Shown: positions 34,001 to 63,229 of the stretch, piece by piece
How the letters are laid out: the number at the start of each line of letters is the position of its first letter
Numbering within the stretch: the first letter of the stretch is position 1
Assembly: GCF_044704955.1 (NCBI RefSeq)
Contig: NC_091998.1
Coordinates: forward strand, 61,628,001 to 61,692,000
DNA length: 64,000 nt
Reading direction: 5' to 3'
Source of the DNA: Pristiophorus japonicus
Lineage: Eukaryota
The notes under the pieces: model-generated
The model's database searches: none
Told to the model about the DNA's origin: nothing
Seen by the model: only the letters and a program-made list of their open reading frames with translations
Position numbers and translations under genes: made by a program

Positions 34001-35581
34001 ATTATGTAACAAGTGGCTGATCTTCAAATCATTTACTCCCTTATTACAATGTTAATTAAGATTGAATGACACGAAGAGTAACTTAAAAGTTCCAGTTCTG
34101 ACAGGTGGTCATCGACCCGAAAGGATCACTCGGTTTCTGCACCTCACCTGCAGAGGGTTCCCAGCAGTTTCTGGATTTATGTTGAATGTATCTTACCTTG
34201 TATCTTATTGCGACATGGCTTTTTCACCTCCGCTGTGCTCTCAGTGTATCGCACCGCTGTGGGAAAGGATTGAGAGAGTGAATTTCCAGCATGTTTAACA
34301 TTGAAGTAGGACCATACAGACAGGGAACGGGTGTGCAGCTTAAGCTGTGGCTTGTGTCTCCTGGACAGCACCCCGACCAGTCACTGGGTTAGATTCTGAA
34401 ATCCGGAAACCTCCCAATGAGAACGCAGATTTAGAATCTATCGTCTCTCGCACGCTCCCCGCCGCGGTGCGCGACTTCCCCTTATTCCCAGCTCCGCCGC
34501 TGCCTTCCACTCTGCACATCGCTCCCACTCCCCCCCCTAGGACCACTGCTCTCCTCCACCGTCACTCTCACAGACCCTCAACCTTCACCCAGTCTCCTTC
34601 CCCAGCCCCCCACCCTTCACCGGACCCCACCGCAGACCCCTGCTCTCGCCTGGGCCCCCACCCTGGACCCCTGGCTGATTTCCCCTCTCTCTAACCCAGG
34701 GGATTACTGGTCAGTGACCAGGAGCAGGAACCCTGGCTGATTTCCCCTCGCCTTCTAACCCAGTGGTCACTGGACAGTGATCAGGAGCAGGATTGTGGCC
34801 GATTTCCTCCTCTCTCTGACCCAGGGGTCACTGAACAGAGATCAGGAGCTCTGGCTGATTTCCCCGCTCTCTCTAACCCATGGGATTACTGGTCAGTGAT
34901 CAGAAGCAGGAACCCTGGCTGATTTCCCCTCTCTCTCTAACCCGGGGGTCACTTGGCAATGATCAGGAGCAGGAACCCTGGCTGATTTCCCCTCTCTCTA
35001 ACCCAGGGAGTCACTGGTCAGTGATCAGGAGCAGGAATCCTGGCTGATTTCCCCGCTCTCTCTAACCCGGGGTTCACTGGTCAGTGACCAGGAGCAGGAA
35101 CCCTGGCTGATTTCCCCGCTCTCTCTAACCCAGAGGGTCACTGGTCAGTGATCGGGAGCAGAACGCGGGCTGATTTCCCCTCTCTCTAACCCAGGGGATT
35201 ACTGGTCAGTGATCAGGAGCAGGAACCCTGGCTGATTTCCCCTCTCTCTAACCCAGGGGGTCACTGGTCAGTGATCAGGAGCAGGAACATGAGCAAACTT
35301 TTCTCTCCCTCAGTCAGGGGCAGCGATGTGAGCAGTGTGATGCACACCAAGGGGGGGATTCCATTAGTTTGCTTCTCGCGGTTAGAAAAGACAATAATTT
35401 TACGTAGCTTCGAAACAAGACTTGTACCTTGGAAGAAAGTCTCCTCGGAGCGGGTTGTTGTGAGCAGTCCCTCAGTCAACAGGAAGCCACATTCAGTGCA
35501 CACCACGTGGCACTGGCTGTAGTGCGAGTCCTCTTCCACCGCACTGGAGCCACACTCGGGGCACTTGGTCTGTCTGGGCAT
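26380..35581 (-). CDS. BRF2: Transcription factor IIIB 50 kDa subunit BRF2; coding exons 35428-35581, 34197-34256, 29278-29599, 26380-27341 (apparent frameshift near 26770-26795)
   Basis: N-terminal Zn ribbon CPECGS...VCTECG; cyclin-fold repeats [12 protein letters not shown]...[13 protein letters not shown]; [29 protein letters not shown]; C-terminal LPPC pin and [22 protein letters not shown]. Exon sizes 154/60/322 match my recollection of vertebrate BRF2. Confidence 0.95.
27432..28840 (+). mobile_element. L2 3' end with a 56-bp tandem expansion (~7 units), an internal CT microsatellite (27940-28323) and the assembly gap
   Basis: CCTACATTGGCTCCC (LHWLP); L2 sequence resumes right after the Ns. 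Confidence 0.85.
28324..28542. other. Assembly gap (N run)
   Basis: Run of N. Confidence 1.
29278..29599 (-). CDS. BRF2: BRF2 322-nt exon (first cyclin repeat)
   Basis: ctcccccag| acceptor, GG|gtcagt donor. Confidence 0.93.
29617..30010 (-). mobile_element. CR1 3' fragment abutting the BRF2 exon-3 acceptor
   Basis: [16 protein letters not shown]...; (TTCTTATG) tail ends ~17 nt from the AG. Confidence 0.9.
30150..31185 (+). repeat. SacSINE1-like SINE with an internal 30-bp minisatellite expansion (~22 units, 30178-30850)
   Basis: (CAGTACTGAGGGAGCGCCGCACTGTCGGAGGGG)-type units, then intact SINE 3' half. Confidence 0.88.
31775..33995 (+). mobile_element. CR1 fragments, including a 5'-truncated young copy (32815-33940) nested in an older CR1 3'UTR
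   Basis: ORF 32790..33851 is RT, nearly identical to the 2501-6780 element. Confidence 0.9.
32036..32370 (-). mobile_element. RTE-clade LINE 3' end
   Basis: [20 protein letters not shown]-terminal peptide and (ATG)n tail. Confidence 0.8.
34197..34256 (-). CDS. BRF2: BRF2 60-nt exon ([21 protein letters not shown])
   Basis: ttcccacag| acceptor, CAAG|gtaaga donor; phase 1-1. Confidence 0.88.
34670..35290 (+). repeat. ~62-bp tandem repeat (~10 units)
   Basis: CTGGCTGATTTCCCCTCTCTCTAACCCAGGGGATTACTGGTCAGTGATCAGGAGCAGGAACC. Confidence 0.92.
35428..35581 (-). CDS. BRF2: BRF2 first coding exon (Zn ribbon); exon begins at an acceptor near 35615
   Basis: ATG at 35581-35579; CAAG|gtacaa donor; upstream ttgtttctgttgcag acceptor implies a separate 5'UTR exon. 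Confidence 0.92.
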
Positions 35582-35724
35582 CTTGCACGCAGGAGACCAG
35601 AGATTCCGTCCCTCTCTGCAACAGAAACAAACGCAGTGATTGAAAAATTATTGCATCCATAAAATTACAGTTCACGGAGCTACAGGATCACTGAATCTCC
35701 CTCACCCTGTCACACCAGAGACCC

Positions 35725-37930
35725 ATGTAAATACCGACACACTCCCGGGGACCCCCTGTAAATACCGACACACTCCCAGGGACCCCCTGTAAATACCGAC
35801 ACACTCCCGGGGACCCCCTGTAAATACTGACACACTCCCGGGGACCCCCTGTAAATACTGAGACACTCCCGGGGACCCCCTGTAAATACTGACACACTTC
35901 CGGGGACCCCCTGTAAATACTGACACACTCCCGGGGACCCCCTGTAAATACTGACACACTCCCGGGGACCCTCTGTAAATACCGACACACTCCCGGGGAC
36001 CCGCTGTAAATACCGACACACTCCCAGGGATTCCCTGTAAATACTGACACACTCCCAGGGACCCCCTGTAAATACTGACACACTCCCGGGGACCCCCTGT
36101 AAATACTGACACACTCCCGGGGACCCCCTGTAAATACTGACACACTCCCGGGGACCCCCTGTAAATACTGACACACTCCTGGGGACCGCCTGTAAATACT
36201 GACACACTCCTGGGGACCGCCTGTAAATACTGACACACATCCGGGGACCCCCTGTAAATACTGACACACTCCAGGGGACCCCCTGTAAATACTGACACAC
36301 TCCTGGGGACCGCCTGTAAATACTGACACACTCCTGGGGACCGCCTGTAAATACCGACACACTCCCGGGGACCCCCTGTAAATACCGACACACTCCCGGG
36401 GACCCCCTGTAAATACCGACACACTCCCGGGGACCCCCTGTAAATACCGACACACTCCCGGGGACCCCCTGTAAATACCGACACACTCCCGGGGACCCCC
36501 TGTAAATACTGACACACTCCCGGGGACCCTCTGTAAATACTGACACACTCCCGGGGACCGCCTGTAAATACTGACATACTCCCGGGGACCCCCTGTAAAT
36601 ACTGACACACTCCCCGGGGACCCCCTGTAAATACTGACACACTCCCGGGGACCCCCTGTAAATACTGACACACTCCCGGGGAGCCACTGTAAATACTGAC
36701 ACACTCCCGGGGACCCCCTGTAAATACTGACACACTCCCGGGGACCCCCTGTAAATACTGACACACTCCCGGGGAGCCACTGTAAATACTGACACACTCC
36801 CGGGGACCCCCTGTAAATACTGAGACACTCCCGGGGACCCGCTGTAAATACTGACACACTCCCAGGGACCCCCTGTAAATACTGACACACTCCCGGGGAC
36901 CCGCTGTAAATACTGACACACTCCCGGGGAGCCGCTGTAAATACTGACACACTCCCGGGGACCCCCTGTAAATACTGACACACTCCCGGGGACCCCCTGT
37001 AAATACTGACACACTCCCGGGGACCCCCTGTAAATACTGACACACTCCCGGGGACCCCCTGTAAATACTGACACACTCCCGGGGACCCGCTGTAAATACT
37101 GACACACTCCCGGGGACCCGCTGTAAATACTGACACACTCCCGGGGAGCCACTGTAAATACTGATACACTCCCGGGGACCCGCTGTAAATACTGACACAC
37201 GCCCAGGGACCCCCTGTAAATACTGACACACTCCCGGGGAGCCACTGTAAATACTGACACACTCCCGGGGACCCCCTGTAAATACTGACACACTCCCGGG
37301 GACCCGCTGTAAATACTGACACACTCCCGGGGACCCCCTGTAAATACTGACACACTCCCGGGGAGCCACTGTAAATACTGACACACTCCCGGGGACCCCC
37401 TGTAAATACTGACACACTCCCGGGGACCCCCTGTAAATACTGACACACTCCCGGGGAGCCACTGTAAATACTGACACACTCCCGGGGACCCCCTGTAAAT
37501 ACTGACACACTCCCGGGGACCCCCTGTAAATACTGACACACTCCCGGGGACCCCCTGTAAATACTGACACACTCCCGGGGACCCCCTGTAAATACTGACA
37601 CACTCCCGGGGACCCCCTGTAAATACTGACACACTCCCGGGGACCCGCTGTAAATACTGACACACTCCCGGGGACCCCCTGTAAATACTGACACACTCCC
37701 GGGGACCCGCTGTAAATACTGACACACTCCCGGGGACCCCCTGTAAATACTGACACACTCCCGGGGACCCGCTGTAAATACTGACACACTCCCGGGGACC
37801 CCCTGTAAATACTGACACACTCCCGGGGACCCCCTGTAAATACTGACACACTCCCGGGGAGCCACTGTAAATACTGACACACTCCCGGGGACCCCCTGTA
37901 AATACTGACACACTCCCCGGGGATTCCCTG
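35725..37930 (+). repeat. 31-bp minisatellite (~70 units) in the BRF2 5'UTR intron
   Basis: TGTAAATACTGACACACTCCCGGGGACCCCC. Confidence 0.97.
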
Positions 37931-38026
37931 AATTGAAACACTTGCATTTGCTGGGCGACTCGCGGCCGGGAGGAGTGTCTGTGGCCCTGGTGGGGGCGGG
38001 GGGAGAAGCGCCAATGTGTGACTGAC

Positions 38027-38085
38027 CTTTCACCCCTGACCCCGGGACACGGCGCGTTTGCCGACCGTCAGTTTCTGCCGGAAAT
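38027..38085 (-). other. BRF2: Putative non-coding first exon of BRF2
   Basis: Minus-strand AAAG|gtcagt donor at 38027/38026 in CpG-rich DNA next to an ETS-like CCGGAAAT; pairs with the acceptor at 35615. TSS position is a guess. Confidence 0.55.
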
Positions 38086-38458
38086 AAAAATCACAATTTG
38101 CAGCAAATAATCAATAATCCCGCGATCCTTCGCAGAAAAAGGCGCATGCAAACCTATATGAATATATAACACTGTGCGGCTTGACAGAACCAGGAAGGTT
38201 ACACTGGGCAGGAGTAAGAACAGAATTAAGCGGCAATGCGCCCCTCACAAAGATGGCGTCGGATCATTTGCCCCTCACAAAGATGGCGCCGGACCATTGT
38301 CCCGTCGCAAAGATGGCGCCGGCTCATTTGCCCATCACAAAGATGGCGCCGGCTCATTTGCCCCTCACCAAAATGGCGCAGGACAATTGGCCCATCACAA
38401 AGATGGCGCTGACGGTTTTCTTCATCCCACGCCCCGGTGCGGCTGCTGCGCTTGCGCG

Positions 38459-38613
38459 ATGGCCCTAGCGCGGCGCGGGGGCCTGGGCCTGGGCCTGGGC
38501 CTACTGCAGGCGGCCGGGAGCGGGAGGCGGTTCTGGGACCCGAGTGAGGGGAGAGCGGGCGGCGGGGTCCTGAGCGCAGCCATGAGCAAGAACAAGAGCA
38601 AAATCCCGGACAG
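38459..38613 (+). CDS. DUSP11: DUSP11 exon 1 (two in-frame ATGs at 38459 and 38582)
   Basis: ...MSKNKSKIPDR; AG|gtaaag donor. Confidence 0.85.
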
Positions 38614-41600
38614 GTAAAGCCCTCGGCCCCATTCGGTGGGCGGCGGGAGAGAGGCCGAGCCCCGGGGCCGCGCTTCAACCCCCCCCCCCATGTCTCTCTT
38701 CCCCCCCCCCCCCATGTCTCTCTTCCCCCCCCCCCATGTCTCTCTTCCCCCCTCCCCCCCCATGTCTCTTCCCCCCCCCCCATGTCTCTTCCCCCCCCCC
38801 CATGTCTCTCTCCCCCCCCCCCATGTCTCTCTCCCCCCCCCACGTCTCTTTCCCCCCCCCACGTCTCTTTCCCCCCCCCACGTCTCTTTCCCCCCCCCAC
38901 GTCTCTTTCCCCCCCCCCACGTCTCTTTCCCCCCCCCACGTCTCTTTCCCCCCCCCACGTCTCTTTCCCCCCCCCACGTCTCTTTCCCCCCCCCACGTCT
39001 CTTTTCCCCCCCCATCACGTCTCTTTCCCCCCCCCATGTCTCTTTCCCCCCCCCCATGTCTCTTTCCCCCCCCACGTCTCTTTCCCCCCCCCATGTCTCT
39101 TTCCCCCCCCATGTCTCTTTCCCCCCCCCATGTCTCTTTCCCCCCCCCATGTCTCTTTTCCCCCCCCATGTCTCTTTTCCCCCCCCATGTCTCTTTCCCC
39201 CCCCCCCATGTCTCTTTCCCCCCCCCCCATGTCTCTTTCCCCCCCCCCCCCATGTCTCTTTCCCCCCCCCCATGTCTCTTTCCCCCCCCCATGTCTCTTT
39301 CCCCCCCCCATGTCTCTTTCCCCCCCCCCATGTCTCTTTCCCCCCCCCCATGTCTCTTTCCCCCCCCCATGTCTCTTTCCCCCCCCATGTCTCTTTCCCC
39401 CCCCATGTCTCTTTCCCCCCCCATGTCTCTTTCCCCCCCCCCATGTCTCTTTCCCCCCCCCCATGTCTCTTTCCCCCCCCCATGTCTCTTTCCCCCCCCA
39501 TGTCTCTTTCCCCCCCCATGTCTCTTTCCCCCCCCATGTCTCTTTCCCCCCCATGTCTCTTTCCCCCCCCATGTCTCTTTCCCCCCCCCATGTCTCTTTC
39601 CCCCCCCCATGTCTCTTTCCCCCCCCCATGTCTCTTTCCCCCCCCATGTCTCTTTCCCCCCCCCACGTCTCTTTCCCCCCCCCCACGTCTCTTTCCCCCC
39701 CCCCACGTCTCTTTCCCCCCCCCACGTCTCTTTCCCCCCCCCCACGTCTCTTTCCCCCCCCCACGTCTCTTTCCCCCCCCATGTCTCTTTCCCCCCCCCA
39801 CGTCTCTTTCCCCCCCCCCACGTCTCTTTCCCCCCCCCCACGTCTCTTTCCCCCCCCCACGTCTCTTTCCCCCCCCCACGTCTCTTTCCCCCCCCCACGT
39901 CTCTTTCCCCCCCCCACGTCTCTTTCCCCCCCCCATGTCTCTTCCCCCCCCCATGTCTCTTTCCCCCCCCCACGTCTCTTTCCCCCCCCCACGTCTCTTT
40001 CCCCCCCCCACGTCTCTTTCCCCCCCCCACGTCTCTTTCCCCCCCCCACGTCTCTTTCCCCCCCCCACGTCTCTTTCCCCCCCCCATGTCTCCCCCCCAT
40101 GTCTCTTTCCCCCCCCCACGTCTCTTTCCCCCCCCCACGTCTGTTTCCCCCCCCCACGTCTGTTTCCCCCCCCCACGTCTGTTTCCCCCCCCCACGTCTG
40201 TTTCCCCCCCCCACGTCTGTTTCCCCCCCCCACGTCTGTTTCCCCCCCCCACGTCTGTTTCCCCCCCCCCCACGTCTGTTTCCCCCCCCCCACGTCTGTT
40301 TCCCCCCCCCCACGTCTCTTTCCCCCCCCCCCACGTCTCTTTCCCCCCCCCCACGTCTCTTTCCCCCCCCCCCACGTCTCTTTCCCCCCCCCCACGTCTC
40401 TTTCCCCCCTCTTCTTCCCCCCCCTCTTCTTCCCCCCCTCTTCTTCCCCCCCCTCTTCTTCCCCCCCTCTTCTTCCCCCCCTCTTCTTCCCCCCCTCTTC
40501 TTCCCCCCCTCTTCTTCCCCCCCTCTTCTTCCCCCCCTCTTCTTCCCCCCCTCTTCTTCCCCCCCTCTTCTTCCCCCCCTCTTCTTCCCCCCCTCTTCTT
40601 CCCCCCCTCTTCTTCCCCCCCCTCTTCTTCCCCCCCCTCTTCTTCCCCCCCTCTTCTTCCCCCCCTCTTCTTCCCCCCCTCTTCTTCCCCCCCTCTTCTT
40701 CCCCCCCTCTTCTTCCCCCCCTCTTCTTCCCCCCCCCTCTTCTTCCCCCCCCCTCTTCTTCCCCCCCCTCTTCTTCCCCCCCCCTCTTCTCTTCCCCCCC
40801 CCTCTTTCCCCCCCCCCCCCCATGTCTCTTCCTCTTCCCCCCCTGGCTAATTTGGGCTGTGTCTGATGCCTTTTCTTTTATCCCCTGACTACAGGTGGCA
40901 GGAATACTCTGCCGTTGGACGGAGGCTCTCGGGGACCAGATTCATCGCGTTTAAAGTTCCACTGAAGAAGGTCAGCAGCTTTCCCCCCCCCACCCCCCAA
41001 CCAAACATTACCCAGCAGGACGATGACAACCCAGTCAGCGGGGCACAAACGGGCCGGACCTGCACATGAACACCACCACCTGGGCCCCCCACCACCTGGG
41101 CCCCCCACCTGTGAGACGTGTGATGGTGGGTCTGGGCGGTGTCAGCGGGTTTGGTGGTTCTGATTCTGGACCGCACTATAAAGCTGATGTGTTGGACCTG
41201 CCTCAGCTCGTCCATCCTGAGAGTGGCGTCTGGTGTCCCAGCTTGTCCAACAGTTCCCTCGTGGGAACACACCTCAATTTCGTGTCTCTGACTCATCCAA
41301 AAATACTTAACACATTGAATCACCTTTGCGGAGCAGTGACTGTTCTGTGGGCAACTGCAGTCGGAACACTGGGAGGCTCCAGGTAGATTGGACCTCCTTG
41401 TGTGAAGTACATTTATAAAGAGCAGATTGTTGAGCAAGTTCTCAATCTGCTTTTCACTTTTTAATCTGCCCCCTTTGTCTCACTCCTGATGCCAGTTCAA
41501 GTGACATACCCGAACTCCCTGCTTCACACCGAGTGCAGTCGTGTTAAATCTCCATGTCTCCTCTCACGGCTGAATCAGTTGCGTTGCTTCGAACTTGGTC

Positions 41601-44600
41601 CTCTAAATGTGGGTACTCCAGTTTGTCATACTGTCCCTGGGTCTGTGCTGGTTCAGTTCTGGCCTGACCCAGTTTGTCGGTCTGGGTCTGTGCTGGTTCA
41701 GCTCTGGCCTGGCCCAGTTTGTCATACTGTCTCTGGGTCTGTGCTGGTTCAGTTCTGGCCTGGCCCAGTTTGTCGTACTGTCCCTGGGTCTGTGCTGGTT
41801 CAGTTCTGGCCTGGCCCAGTTTGTCGGTCTGGGTCTGTGCTGGTTCAGTTCTGGCCTGGCCCAGTTTGTCATACTGTCTCTGGGTCTGTGCTGGTTCAGT
41901 TCTGGCCTGGCCCAGTTTGTCGGTCTGGGTCTGTGCTGGTTCAGTTCTGGCCTGGCCCAGTTTGTCATACTGTCCCTGGGTCTGTGCTGGTTCAGTTCTG
42001 GCCTGGCCCAGTTTGTCGGTCTGGGTCTGTGCTGGTTCAGTTCTGGCCTGGCCCAGTTTGTTATACTGTCTCTGGGTCTGTGCTGGTTCAGTTCTGGCCT
42101 GGCCCAGTTTGTCATACTGTCCCTGGGTCTGTGCTGGTTCAGTTCTGGCCTGGCCCAGTTTGTCGGTCTGGGTCTGTGCTGGTTCAGTTCTGGCCTGGCC
42201 CAGTTTGTCATACTGTCTCTGGGTCTGTGCTGGTTCAGTTCTGGCCTGGCCCAGTTTGTCGTACTGTCCCTGGGTCTGTGCTGGTTCAGTTCTGGCCTGG
42301 CCCAGTTTGTCATACTGTCTCTGGGTCTGTGCTGGTTCAGTTCTGGCCTGGCCCAGTTTGTCATACTGTCTCTGGGTCTGTGCTGGTTCAGTTCTGGCCT
42401 GGCCCAGTTTGTCATACTGTCCCTGGGTCTGTGCTGGTTCAGTTCTGGCCTGGCCCAGTTTGTCGGTCTGGGTCTGTGCTGGTTCAGTTCTGGCCTGGCC
42501 CAGTTTGTCATACTGTCTCTGGGTCTGTGCTGGTTCAGTTCTGGCCTGGCCCAGTTTGTCGGTCTGGGTCTGTGCTGGTTCAGTTCTGGCCTGGCCCAGT
42601 TTGTCATACTGTCTCTGGGTCTGTGCTGGTTCAGTTCTGGCCTGGCCCAGTTTGTTGTACTGTCCCTGGGTCTGTGCTGGTTCAGTTCTGGCCTGGCCCA
42701 GTTTGTCATACTGTCTCTGGGTCTGTGCTGGTTCAGTTCTGGCCTGGCCCAGTTTGTCATACTGTCTCTGGGTCTGTGCTGGTTCAGTTCTGGCCTGGCC
42801 CAGTTTGTCATACTGTCCCTGGGTCTGTGCTGGTTCAGTTCTGGCCTGGCCCAGTTTGTCGGTCTGGGTCTGTGCTGGTTCAGTTCTGGCCTGGCCCAGT
42901 TTGTCATACTGTCTCTGGGTCTGTGCTGGTTCAGTTCTGGCCTGGCCCAGTTTGTCGGTCTGGGTCTGTGCTGGTTCAGTTCTGGCCTGGCCCAGTTTGT
43001 CATACTGTCTCTGGGTCTGTGCTGGTTCAGTTCTGGCCTGGCCCAGTTTGTCGTACTGTCCCTGGGTCTGTGCTGGTTCAGTTCTGGCCTGGCCCAGTTT
43101 GTCATACTGTCTCTGGGTCTGTGCTGGTTCAGTTCTGGCCTGGCCCAGTTTGCCATACTGTCTCTGGGTCTGTGCTGGTTCCGTGCTGGGCTTGACATAC
43201 CGTTGCTTCTTTCAGCTGTTCGAAAGCAGCCTGCCGGCCACTGAAGTCTTCTCGCCAACTGACCTTGTGCGGCAAATCGAGGATCAGAGAGAGGAGTTGG
43301 GGAAAATCATCGACCTGACCTTTACAGAGCGTTATTATGACTCTATGGTAAGAACAGGAGGGCCTCGGCTTTAACCCTTTGCTGAGCAGGGCTGTGGGGG
43401 AGGTTGGACGAGACTGTCCCAGTTGTGTGAGCAGGATTTCGGTCCCCTGTTTACGCTGGTACCGATGGTTCGCCAGAGAGTGTTGCTACTGAGGAGCGTT
43501 GCTGCTGACCAATATCTCAGTCTCACAGCTCATTAGGTTAGTCTTTGACCTCGGTTTAGTCCCGCTCGTGTAAGGATAACGGTTCTTGTTTTTAATCTCG
43601 TTTTTGATTCTTAAATTGGGTGTGTTTTGATTTTGGAACAAAGTTGGTCACGATCATTGATTTTTTTTCCCATTTTATTTTCTCTTAAAAAGATTCTTCT
43701 GTCCCCAAAATTAATTATTTAAATCTTGTCTCCCGAATTAATAAATGGTGGCCTGAGAGAGACGGGAAATGTAACGTTTTGTTTCTGAGAAGTTGTGGGT
43801 TGTCTCACTCCAAGAGATCATTGGTTATTGCTTCCATCAGAAATGTGATCTTTGTTTTCACCAGCAAAATTCGAGCTCCTGGCGAGGAGCAGGTGGGGGG
43901 GAGGGAGTCAGCACTGTGGGGGAGAAAAGAAAGACTTGCATTTATATAGCGCCTTTCACGACCACCAGATGCCTCAAACCACTTTGCAGCCAATAAAGTA
44001 CTTTGTGAAGTGTCGCTGTCATAGGCAGTCCCTCGAAATCGAGGAAGACTCGCTTCCATTCTAAACGTGAGTGTAGTCACTGTTGTAATGTAGGGAACGC
44101 GGCAGCCAATTTGCGCCCAACAAGCTCCCACAAACAGCAATGTGATAACGACAAGATCATCTGGGGTTTTTTTTTAAAGTGAAGTTGATTGAGGCTAGGA
44201 CACCGGGGAGAACTTCCCTGCTCTTCTTCGAAATAGTGCCATGGGATCTTTTACGTCCACCTGAGAGAGCAGACAGGGCCTCGGTTTAACGTCTCATCCG
44301 AAAGACGTGTACAGTGTCCCCTCAGTACTACACTGGGAGTGTCGGCCTAGGTTTTTTTTTTGTGCTCAAATCCCTGCAGTGGGACTCGAAACCACCACCC
44401 TTTGACTCAGAGTGCTACCCACTGAGCCACTGTTTGACCAAGATGTCTGAAGTGTAACGATCGCTGTGCAAAGTTTGAGATGCATAAAAGCACTCGGCGG
44501 TACACTTTCGAATTTGGGCTGTGTGGAGGGAGTTCTGCGGTCTGGCTAACACTGGGGTGAGGTACAGGCGCGGATGGACGGGGCTGTCACTGGCGGTGGA

Positions 44601-62879: not shown

Positions 62880-63117
62880 TGTAGTTCGAGCGCTGTGATT
62901 GGTCGGTGACGGGGCTCGCGGTTCGAGCGCTGTGATTGGTCGGCGGACGGGACTCGCGGCCCGAGCGCTGTGATTGGTCGGTGACGGGGCTCGCGGTTCG
63001 AGCGCTGTGATTGGTCGGCGGACGGGACTCGCGGCCCGAGCGCTGTGATTGGGCGGAGCTTTCCGCTGCGGCGGCGCGGGCTTGCGGCCTAGTCGCGGAT
63101 TCCTCCTCCCGCCTCCG
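62880..63117 (+). promoter_or_regulatory. CpG-island promoter and probable non-coding first exon of an unidentified downstream gene
   Basis: Five GATTGG (reverse CCAAT) boxes at 62898, 62935, 62973, 63010, 63048; GGGCGG box ~63051; CCG|gtaaga donor at 63117/63118 and a second gtgagt at 63144. Confidence 0.65.
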
Positions 63118-63229
63118 GTAAGAGTGAGAGGGCCCGCGGGTGGGTGAGTGAGTGCGGCCCCCCAGCTCTCCGCCCCTCAGGGCACCGACTCCGGCCGGGG
63201 GTCGGGGAACAGAGAGCCCGGGCGGTGCC

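Follow-up and report, generated by a model that had tools for sequence, protein, structure and literature searches.

A head-to-head BRF2-DUSP11 gene pair in the sawshark Pristiophorus japonicus, with a predicted mitochondrial leader encoded from an upstream DUSP11 start

Background

More than 10% of human genes are organized in divergent pairs, and the promoters of such pairs are enriched in motifs for YY1, GABP, NRF-1, Sp1 and the CCAAT box (PMC2077898). In this study we describe a pair of this type, formed by BRF2 and DUSP11, in a 64,000-nucleotide stretch of the genome of the sawshark P. japonicus (C22:61,628,001-61,692,000 of its own assembly; hereafter the window, to whose first letter all positions refer unless stated otherwise). 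A second point of reference is provided by the dual-targeted enzymes with two in-frame starts, such as REXO2, LIG3 and TOP3A.

The reading that we prefer, with a probability of about 0.6, is that BRF2 and DUSP11 form a genuine head-to-head pair, which sharks and rays have conserved, that it most likely has an ordinary housekeeping promoter of the YY1/ETS type firing both ways, and that DUSP11 exon 1 holds two in-frame ATGs, the first of which adds a predicted mitochondrial presequence. Gene identity, orientation, the splicing of both first exons, the promoter motifs and the two ATGs are direct observations. Taken alone, the pair would be a lineage-wide instance of a common layout, and a natural test of co-regulation between RNA polymerase III (Pol III) initiation and the cleaning of RNA 5' ends. 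The leader is of greater weight, as DUSP11 has so far been discussed as a nuclear and cytosolic protein; if the reading is true, the upstream start would place an enzyme that removes triphosphates from RNA inside mitochondria.

Identity of the genes and transcript evidence for their 5' ends

The two genes are true BRF2 and DUSP11 genes. They lie on opposite strands and run away from each other from their 5' ends, and they match, exon by exon, the named P. japonicus records P0002 (BRF2-like, minus strand) and P0122 (DUSP11-like, plus strand); in the PDB comparison the human BRF2 and DUSP11 structures were matched as well. The BRF2 protein has the zinc ribbon, the two cyclin repeats, the BRF2-type C-terminal repeat and the PPC motif (FLPPCLT) of its family, with matches to PF21886 (E 6e-60) and PF00382 and one to PF08271 below the cut-off, and its best PDB match is the 50 kDa subunit of TFIIIB. 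DUSP11 comprises nine coding exons with an intact catalytic loop. It shows the HCTHGxNRT loop of DUSP11/PIR1 and an arginine at Cys+40, a criterion based on the role of R192 in human DUSP11, and it is nearer to DUSP11 than to capping enzyme (exon 3: E 1.2e-9 for human DUSP11, PDB 4JMJ, versus E 0.4).

Four of the seven sequencing runs were aligned to the window. One of these (X1) is genomic and continuous, while the contigs of X5, X6 and X7 are spliced, for which reason these three were treated as RNA, no run being labelled as such. Only exon pieces of about 31 nt or more could be placed in these alignments. Since the BRF2 start codon sits behind a splice acceptor (35615), an upstream exon is required, and run X5 provides a non-coding one (Table 1). 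Its donor reads AAT/GCAAGT, that is, a GC donor in this assembly, and the loose end of the contig matches BRF2 exon 2 (35586-35615, minus strand) in 28 of 30 letters; the two differing letters, both in the untranslated region (UTR), are perhaps alleles. The preliminary description of this DNA had placed the BRF2 first-exon donor at 38027. That donor could not be confirmed: the only junction seen uses 37946 and the observed exon lies inside the proposed intron, although a first piece of less than 31 nt would escape detection. The X5 contig runs into adapter one base beyond the A (38023) of the sequence TCAGTC, which by the initiator consensus reads as initiator-like, and the GT motif at 38027 may thus, judged from its letters, be an initiator rather than a donor. 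A BRF2 start near 35.6 kb, which the same description had named as the finding that would speak against it, was not what emerged in that run, the X5 exon (38022-37946) placing the 5' end near 38.0 kb.

For DUSP11 the junction between exons 1 and 2 was found in all three spliced runs, with contigs starting at 38517, 38533 and 38529, between the ATG at 38459 and the conserved ATG at 38582. The outermost contig ends of the two genes are therefore 495 bp apart (38022 versus 38517-38533), well within the 1 kb of divergent pairs, and the proposed head-to-head arrangement on a short shared promoter is supported. The spacing of about 430 bp given earlier is also correct for the points it was measured between (38027 to ATG 38459, 432 bp). 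Contigs of X5-X7 do not cover 38023-38516, which is not evidence of silence there.

The transcript data also hold points that weigh against our reading. The three spliced runs are samples from one study and hence not independent; contig ends are hints, not mapped start sites, for both genes; and BRF2 exon 1 was seen in one run only, with no BRF2 piece from X6 or X7 on the window.

Table 1. Features of the BRF2-DUSP11 locus (positions in the window)
Feature	Position	Strand	Remarks
BRF2 non-coding first exon	37946..38022	-	run X5 contig, 77 nt, no differences; splices from 37946/37945 to exon 2
AAG/GTCAGT, proposed donor 38027, or initiator-like TCAGTC	38019..38029	-	A at 38023; use as donor not seen
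BRF2 exon 2	35428..35615	-	34 nt UTR, ATG at 35581, zinc ribbon; first coding exon 35581-35428
BRF2 remaining coding exons	34256-34197, 29600-29278, 27340-26380	-	cyclin repeats, FLPPC motif
Promoter between observed 5' ends	38023..38516	.	495 bp, single copy in assembly
ETS-like CCGGAAAT	38078		presumed motif name
GCGCATGC	38142		in intergenic promoter
30-bp tandem repeat	38240..38409	+	5.7 copies; six AA(G/A)ATGGCG YY1-type motifs
NRF1-like TGCGCTTGCGC	38447		presumed motif name
DUSP11 in-frame leader, predicted mitochondrial presequence	38459..38581	+	41 codons, sequence-based
DUSP11 exon 1 end	38582..38613	+	conserved start (MSKNKSKIPDR), donor; spliced to exon 2 at 40895 (3/3 spliced runs)
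DUSP11 coding exons 2-9	40895..52471	+	intact HCTHGVNRT loop

The intergenic promoter

The two starts share one CpG island, as had been claimed (37930-38680, GC content 0.61, CpG observed/expected 0.88), which is divided by an AT-richer core with a GC content of 0.42. Strand arrangement, spacing, CpG island and motifs are all those of a divergent pair. The elements that we take to be ETS-like and NRF1-like are near-matches only to the ETS/GABP and NRF1 sites. The most conspicuous component is a tandem repeat that contains all six plus-strand YY1-type motifs of this form in the window, three of its six units carrying, on the reverse strand, the exact YY1 site of the Peg3/Usp29 locus, GGCGCCATCTT. 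The ATGs of these motifs share one frame, the last of them lying at 38403, and this frame ends at a stop (38466-38468) that overlaps the ATG at 38459. A transcript translated from 38459 would hence need to start after 38403. The promoter has a single match in the assembly, for which reason a dispersed mobile element was rejected.

Two independent promoters might lie back to back here, the YY1 array being a minisatellite that expanded locally and serves either DUSP11 only or neither gene, with BRF2 relying on the elements in 38023-38180. The six YY1 motifs do all have the same orientation, the AT-richer core does split the island, and repeats are common in the neighbourhood, with minisatellites in most introns and a 38-bp CCAAT-box repeat in the next promoter. 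We nevertheless consider two separate promoters improbable, as the extended YY1 motif recurs elsewhere at two sites, of which one is CpG-rich and resembles a promoter, and as half of the units carry the exact Peg3/Usp29 site (PMC4196374).

Conservation and history of the pair

Accession numbers tend to track gene order within one annotation, closeness being telling and distance less so. Twelve other elasmobranchs have records for both genes, and in all of them BRF2 and DUSP11 are listed on chromosomes of equal size. The accession gaps are 1, 1, 1, 2, 3, 4, 8, 14, 23, 34, 252 and 429, where the gaps of 23 and 34 come from series in which isoforms step by about 9. In ten of the twelve species the gap is thus 34 or less, and the adjacency that had been expected in related sharks appears to be kept. 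In Heptranchias the models of the two genes are consecutive and both lack 5' exons, and in an older assembly of Chiloscyllium punctatum both models are 5'-partial and lie on separate scaffolds. Both cases are what the loss of a common 5' region in a single gap would produce. On the other side of the balance, two species show the gaps of 252 and 429, and adjacency in other species was judged from these gaps, which do not give orientation.

Outside the elasmobranchs the picture is different. In the five sauropsids compared, crocodilians and geckos among them, the gaps range from 100 to 16,220 and give no sign of adjacency, the two genes being on a chromosome or scaffold of equal size in four (Alligator sinensis differs). 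In the coelacanth both genes are on one chromosome, with accessions from different releases, so that the gap is not comparable. In chicken BRF2 starts at chr22:2,241,277, between ERLIN2 and ASH2L, and DUSP11 is not among the 30 of 190 chr22 entries listed. The record comparison listed no BRF2 record for chimaera, gar, bowfin, bichir or frog. In zebrafish brf2 (chr10:41.36-41.38 Mb, beside rab11fip1b) is separated by 925 kb from dusp11 (42.31-42.32 Mb, beside stambpa; PMC5690287). Together with the sauropsid gaps, this separation indicates that the pairing is not the general layout of jawed vertebrates, and the earlier suggestion of an ancestral gnathostome arrangement finds no support among bony vertebrates.

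The gene order in the shark is FHIP2B-like, BRF2, DUSP11 and STAMBP-like, followed 2.3 Mb further on by the last exon of a RAB11FIP-type gene and by an NPC1L1-like gene. The names of these neighbours are presumptive, and Pfam domains support the first three. This order reverses the zebrafish block brf2, rab11fip1b, stambpa, dusp11. The outer neighbours disagree (NPC1L1-like in the shark versus tcf7l1a in zebrafish), which is a further difficulty and does not fit a single inversion as the whole history. TPRKB is on C13, not on C22, and a family search for PLPBP found nothing. It appears from these comparisons that BRF2 and DUSP11 are old chromosome mates, and the records suggest that their direct pairing is elasmobranch-wide. 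Judged by title or abstract start, no paper on BRF2-DUSP11 linkage was found, nor anything on this pair in the literature on head-to-head genes in sharks.

A rearrangement on the old shared chromosome may have joined the two 5' ends, or bony fishes may have split them. Sharks and rays would then have kept the pair, since one promoter cannot be moved while the other stays in place, and any co-regulation of BRF2 and DUSP11 would be of the loose kind that is common to housekeeping pairs.

Coupling to Pol III output

The preliminary description had proposed a stronger link, in which selection keeps the pair for the link that the shared promoter makes between type 3 Pol III output, driven by BRF2, and the removal of 5' triphosphates by DUSP11, which would limit RIG-I activation. 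The overlap of BRF2 targets with DUSP11 substrates is partial. DUSP11 has a modulating effect on vault, Alu, Y and RMRP RNAs (PMC7706711, PMC7808613). Y RNA and RMRP are type 3, which agrees with the proposal, whereas the vault and Alu RNAs belong to type 2 and U6 receives a methyl cap from MePCE (PMC12193147), and Pol III types 1 and 2 need BRF1 (PMC13535238). The adjacency in ten of twelve sharks and rays would also fit, as would the amplification of a BRF2 target in this genome, where 37 of 48 U6 matches fall in one region of C8, mostly in a tandem array. Against this stands that the relevance of Pol III-type short interspersed elements (SINEs), on which the proposal had drawn, turns out to be weak, as A and B boxes lie inside all six SINE-like copies found in the window, a type 2 arrangement, which depends on BRF1 and not on BRF2. 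The zebrafish genes lack the proposed link and belong to different expression clusters (PMC5690287), and divergent pairs are common in any case (PMC2077898). Moreover, no proximal sequence element (PSE) was found in the promoter, the best match to the U6 PSE of this genome being 12/21, at background, so that a type 3 element offers no route for direct feedback. On these grounds selected coupling seems unlikely to us, and we prefer the ordinary bidirectional housekeeping promoter.

The intergenic DNA was also considered as a type 3 Pol III promoter (PSE plus TATA at U6-like spacing) or a small RNA gene; both were rejected, given the missing PSE and the lack of any Rfam family near the cut-off in this DNA.

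The leader encoded from the upstream ATG

The preliminary description took the ATG at 38459 as the first of DUSP11. It is indeed the first in-frame ATG and is included in the named gene model; the contigs of all three spliced runs begin downstream of it. It extends the protein in frame by 41 residues ahead of MSKNKSKIPDRW, the start common to most vertebrate records. The leader has the composition of a presequence, being N-terminal, Arg-rich and acid-poor: its first 25 residues include four Arg, seven bulky hydrophobic residues and no Asp or Glu. This combination occurred in 0.1% of 3,000 open-frame shuffles (the absence of acids alone in 13.6%), and charge and hydrophobicity jointly exceed 99.9% of the shuffles.

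A comparable leader is widespread. The first exon is intact in 14 of the 16 elasmobranch species that have a DUSP11 record, and in 13 of these 14 the protein begins with an Arg-rich, acid-poor stretch followed by a second Met; the exception is Mobula hypostoma. Similar leaders were found in chimaera, coelacanth, paddlefish, bowfin, five records of the eel group, two herrings and the frog Discoglossus. Of 120 DUSP11 records listed, 113 contain the anchor motif, and 25 of these have at least 28 residues before it, four of which are not presequence-like (two mammals, Cirrhinus and M. hypostoma). We aligned 19 leaders that had been chosen as presequence-like: 21 of the 171 pairs align better than shuffles at p <= 0.02, where about three are expected, and alignments across deep splits stand out (sawshark-catshark 51 versus 24 in shuffles; coelacanth-bowfin 48 versus 23.5). 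As the species are related, these counts are not independent. The first 24 residues of the 19 leaders contain eight acids in 455 positions, as compared to 4.7-6.6% in random open frames. The cleavage motif R-x-F/L/Y-S is present in 4/19 leaders versus 0.48 in shuffles, the motif having been defined after the sequences were seen.

Several properties argue in the opposite direction. The hydrophobic moment of the shark leader (0.49) is equalled by 54% of shuffles, compared with values of 0.86 in catshark and 0.84 in frog; its hydrophobic count depends on a GGCCTG repeat; the cleavage motif is not in the shark leader; and random GC-rich frames are also Arg-rich. Most records (88 of the 113 anchored ones), including most teleosts and all sauropsids listed, have no long leader. 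The ATG at 38459 is covered by none of the three spliced contigs, so that the long mRNA is putative. A signal peptide was considered and is less likely, since the peak 11-residue hydropathy reaches 2.0 or more in 4/19 leaders and is 1.63 in the shark.

These points raise the possibility that the pair is real and the leader is not. The leader would then be only GC-rich 5' UTR, annotated as coding because gene predictors read on to the first in-frame ATG, with the short protein as the only product. The downstream start of all three contigs is what this would predict, 22-30% of random frames have an in-frame ATG ahead of the first stop, and the ESM Atlas gave no usable lead for the two leaders queried. 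It is harder to reconcile with homologous leaders that start in frame at 31-41 codons in sharks and chimaera and at 25-91 in ray-finned fishes, with the alignments across deep splits and the depletion of acids, or with the human import data described below. We regard such a UTR as possible, and lean towards a translated presequence.

The human data come from the MitoCoP compendium, which includes DUSP11 and does not include BRF2 (PMC8664129). In the TOMM40 importomics of that study DUSP11 is assigned to class 1 (log2 -1.54, p 0.002, 3/4 replicates), and about 1,400 of its 25,700 copies per cell are mitochondrial; the protein is unnamed in the main text and appears in the supplement only. The mass of the entry, 43,710 Da, fits about 373 residues versus the 330 of the major human form, while the imported isoform is not specified in the table. 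Two points reduce the weight of these data: the mitochondrial pool rests on two to three peptides in 3/4 replicates (PMC8664129), and human DUSP11 has been described as mainly nuclear. A search for a mitochondrial DUSP11 isoform in the literature found none among the papers listed, judged by title or abstract start. Primary mitochondrial transcripts start with a triphosphate (PMC6900737), and leaked mitochondrial RNA can trigger RIG-I-like sensors.

The conserved presequence and the human import data together make DUSP11 a candidate mitochondrial RNA triphosphatase, and a mitochondrial isoform is plausible to us, at about even odds. In the shark, most DUSP11 mRNA would start between the two ATGs and give the short nuclear enzyme, and a minor start within the 50-base stretch that separates the last YY1 ATG from 38459 would give a long form that is imported into mitochondria. 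More tentatively, and at slightly worse odds, DUSP11 may be ancestrally dual-targeted: the upstream ATG, as seen in sharks, rays, chimaera, coelacanth, early ray-finned fishes and frog, would send the RNA 5'-triphosphatase into mitochondria to strip the triphosphates of primary transcripts, and in sharks the nuclear-to-mitochondrial ratio would be set by which start site is used on the promoter common to BRF2 and DUSP11.

Other features of the window and the genome

In its last exon (26640-26880, minus strand) BRF2 shifts frame within a G-rich repeat, so that the FLPPC motif and the C-terminus are in another frame; the named model P0002 omits part of this repeat, and the shift may be an assembly error or a small intron. 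The last exon of DUSP11 contains a 27-bp in-frame repeat of 9.4 copies (52102-52382, plus strand), which encodes a tail of the type QS(Y/C)QPESS and extends the protein to 446 residues.

Minisatellites occupy most introns in the window. The promoter of the STAMBP-like gene (62884-63120, plus strand) carries 4.5 copies of a 38-bp repeat with a CCAAT box in each, a second case of a tandemly multiplied factor motif beside the YY1 array. The extended YY1-type motif is found elsewhere once in a CpG-rich, promoter-like stretch (L002, C11:522047) and six times in an unplaced contig (L004, C3791:84869). Near or within the STAMBP-like gene lies a retro-element (L007:9181 to L008:7439, plus strand), whose frames encode protease, reverse transcriptase and RNase H; a further frame of 737 residues has no Pfam match. 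In the U6 region on C8 (186.58-186.83 Mb, L053-L059) most of the matches belong to a tandem array of units of about 2.57 kb, and three U6 upstream regions read there contain PSE- and TATA-like elements.

Comparison with known systems

In enzymes of the REXO2, LIG3 and TOP3A type the upstream ATG adds a mitochondrial address and the downstream ATG gives the nuclear or cytosolic form, which is the putative arrangement of shark DUSP11. Unlike in those enzymes, dual targeting was not found reported for DUSP11, and import of the shark protein is predicted.

With the vertebrate divergent pairs on CpG promoters with GABP, YY1 and NRF-1 sites (PMC2077898) the locus shares the opposite strands, the 5' ends less than 1 kb apart, the CpG island and the motif set. 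It differs from them in a pairing that zebrafish does not show and that accession numbers do not indicate for sauropsids, in a YY1 motif multiplied to a six-copy tandem array, and in a bidirectional activity that is here predicted. The bidirectional Peg3/Usp29 promoter likewise has tandem repeats with the same YY1 site beside it; at Peg3, which is imprinted in mammals, the array is found in intron 1, whereas the shark array lies between two starts, with no sign of imprinting (PMC4196374).

Finally, the shark protein shares with its best PDB match, human DUSP11/PIR1 (4JMJ), the HCTHGxNRT loop and the arginine 40 residues after the catalytic cysteine. Human DUSP11 is described as mainly nuclear with some cytosolic activity (PMC7706711, PMC12058148), whereas the shark protein is distinguished by its presequence-like leader and its repeat-rich tail.

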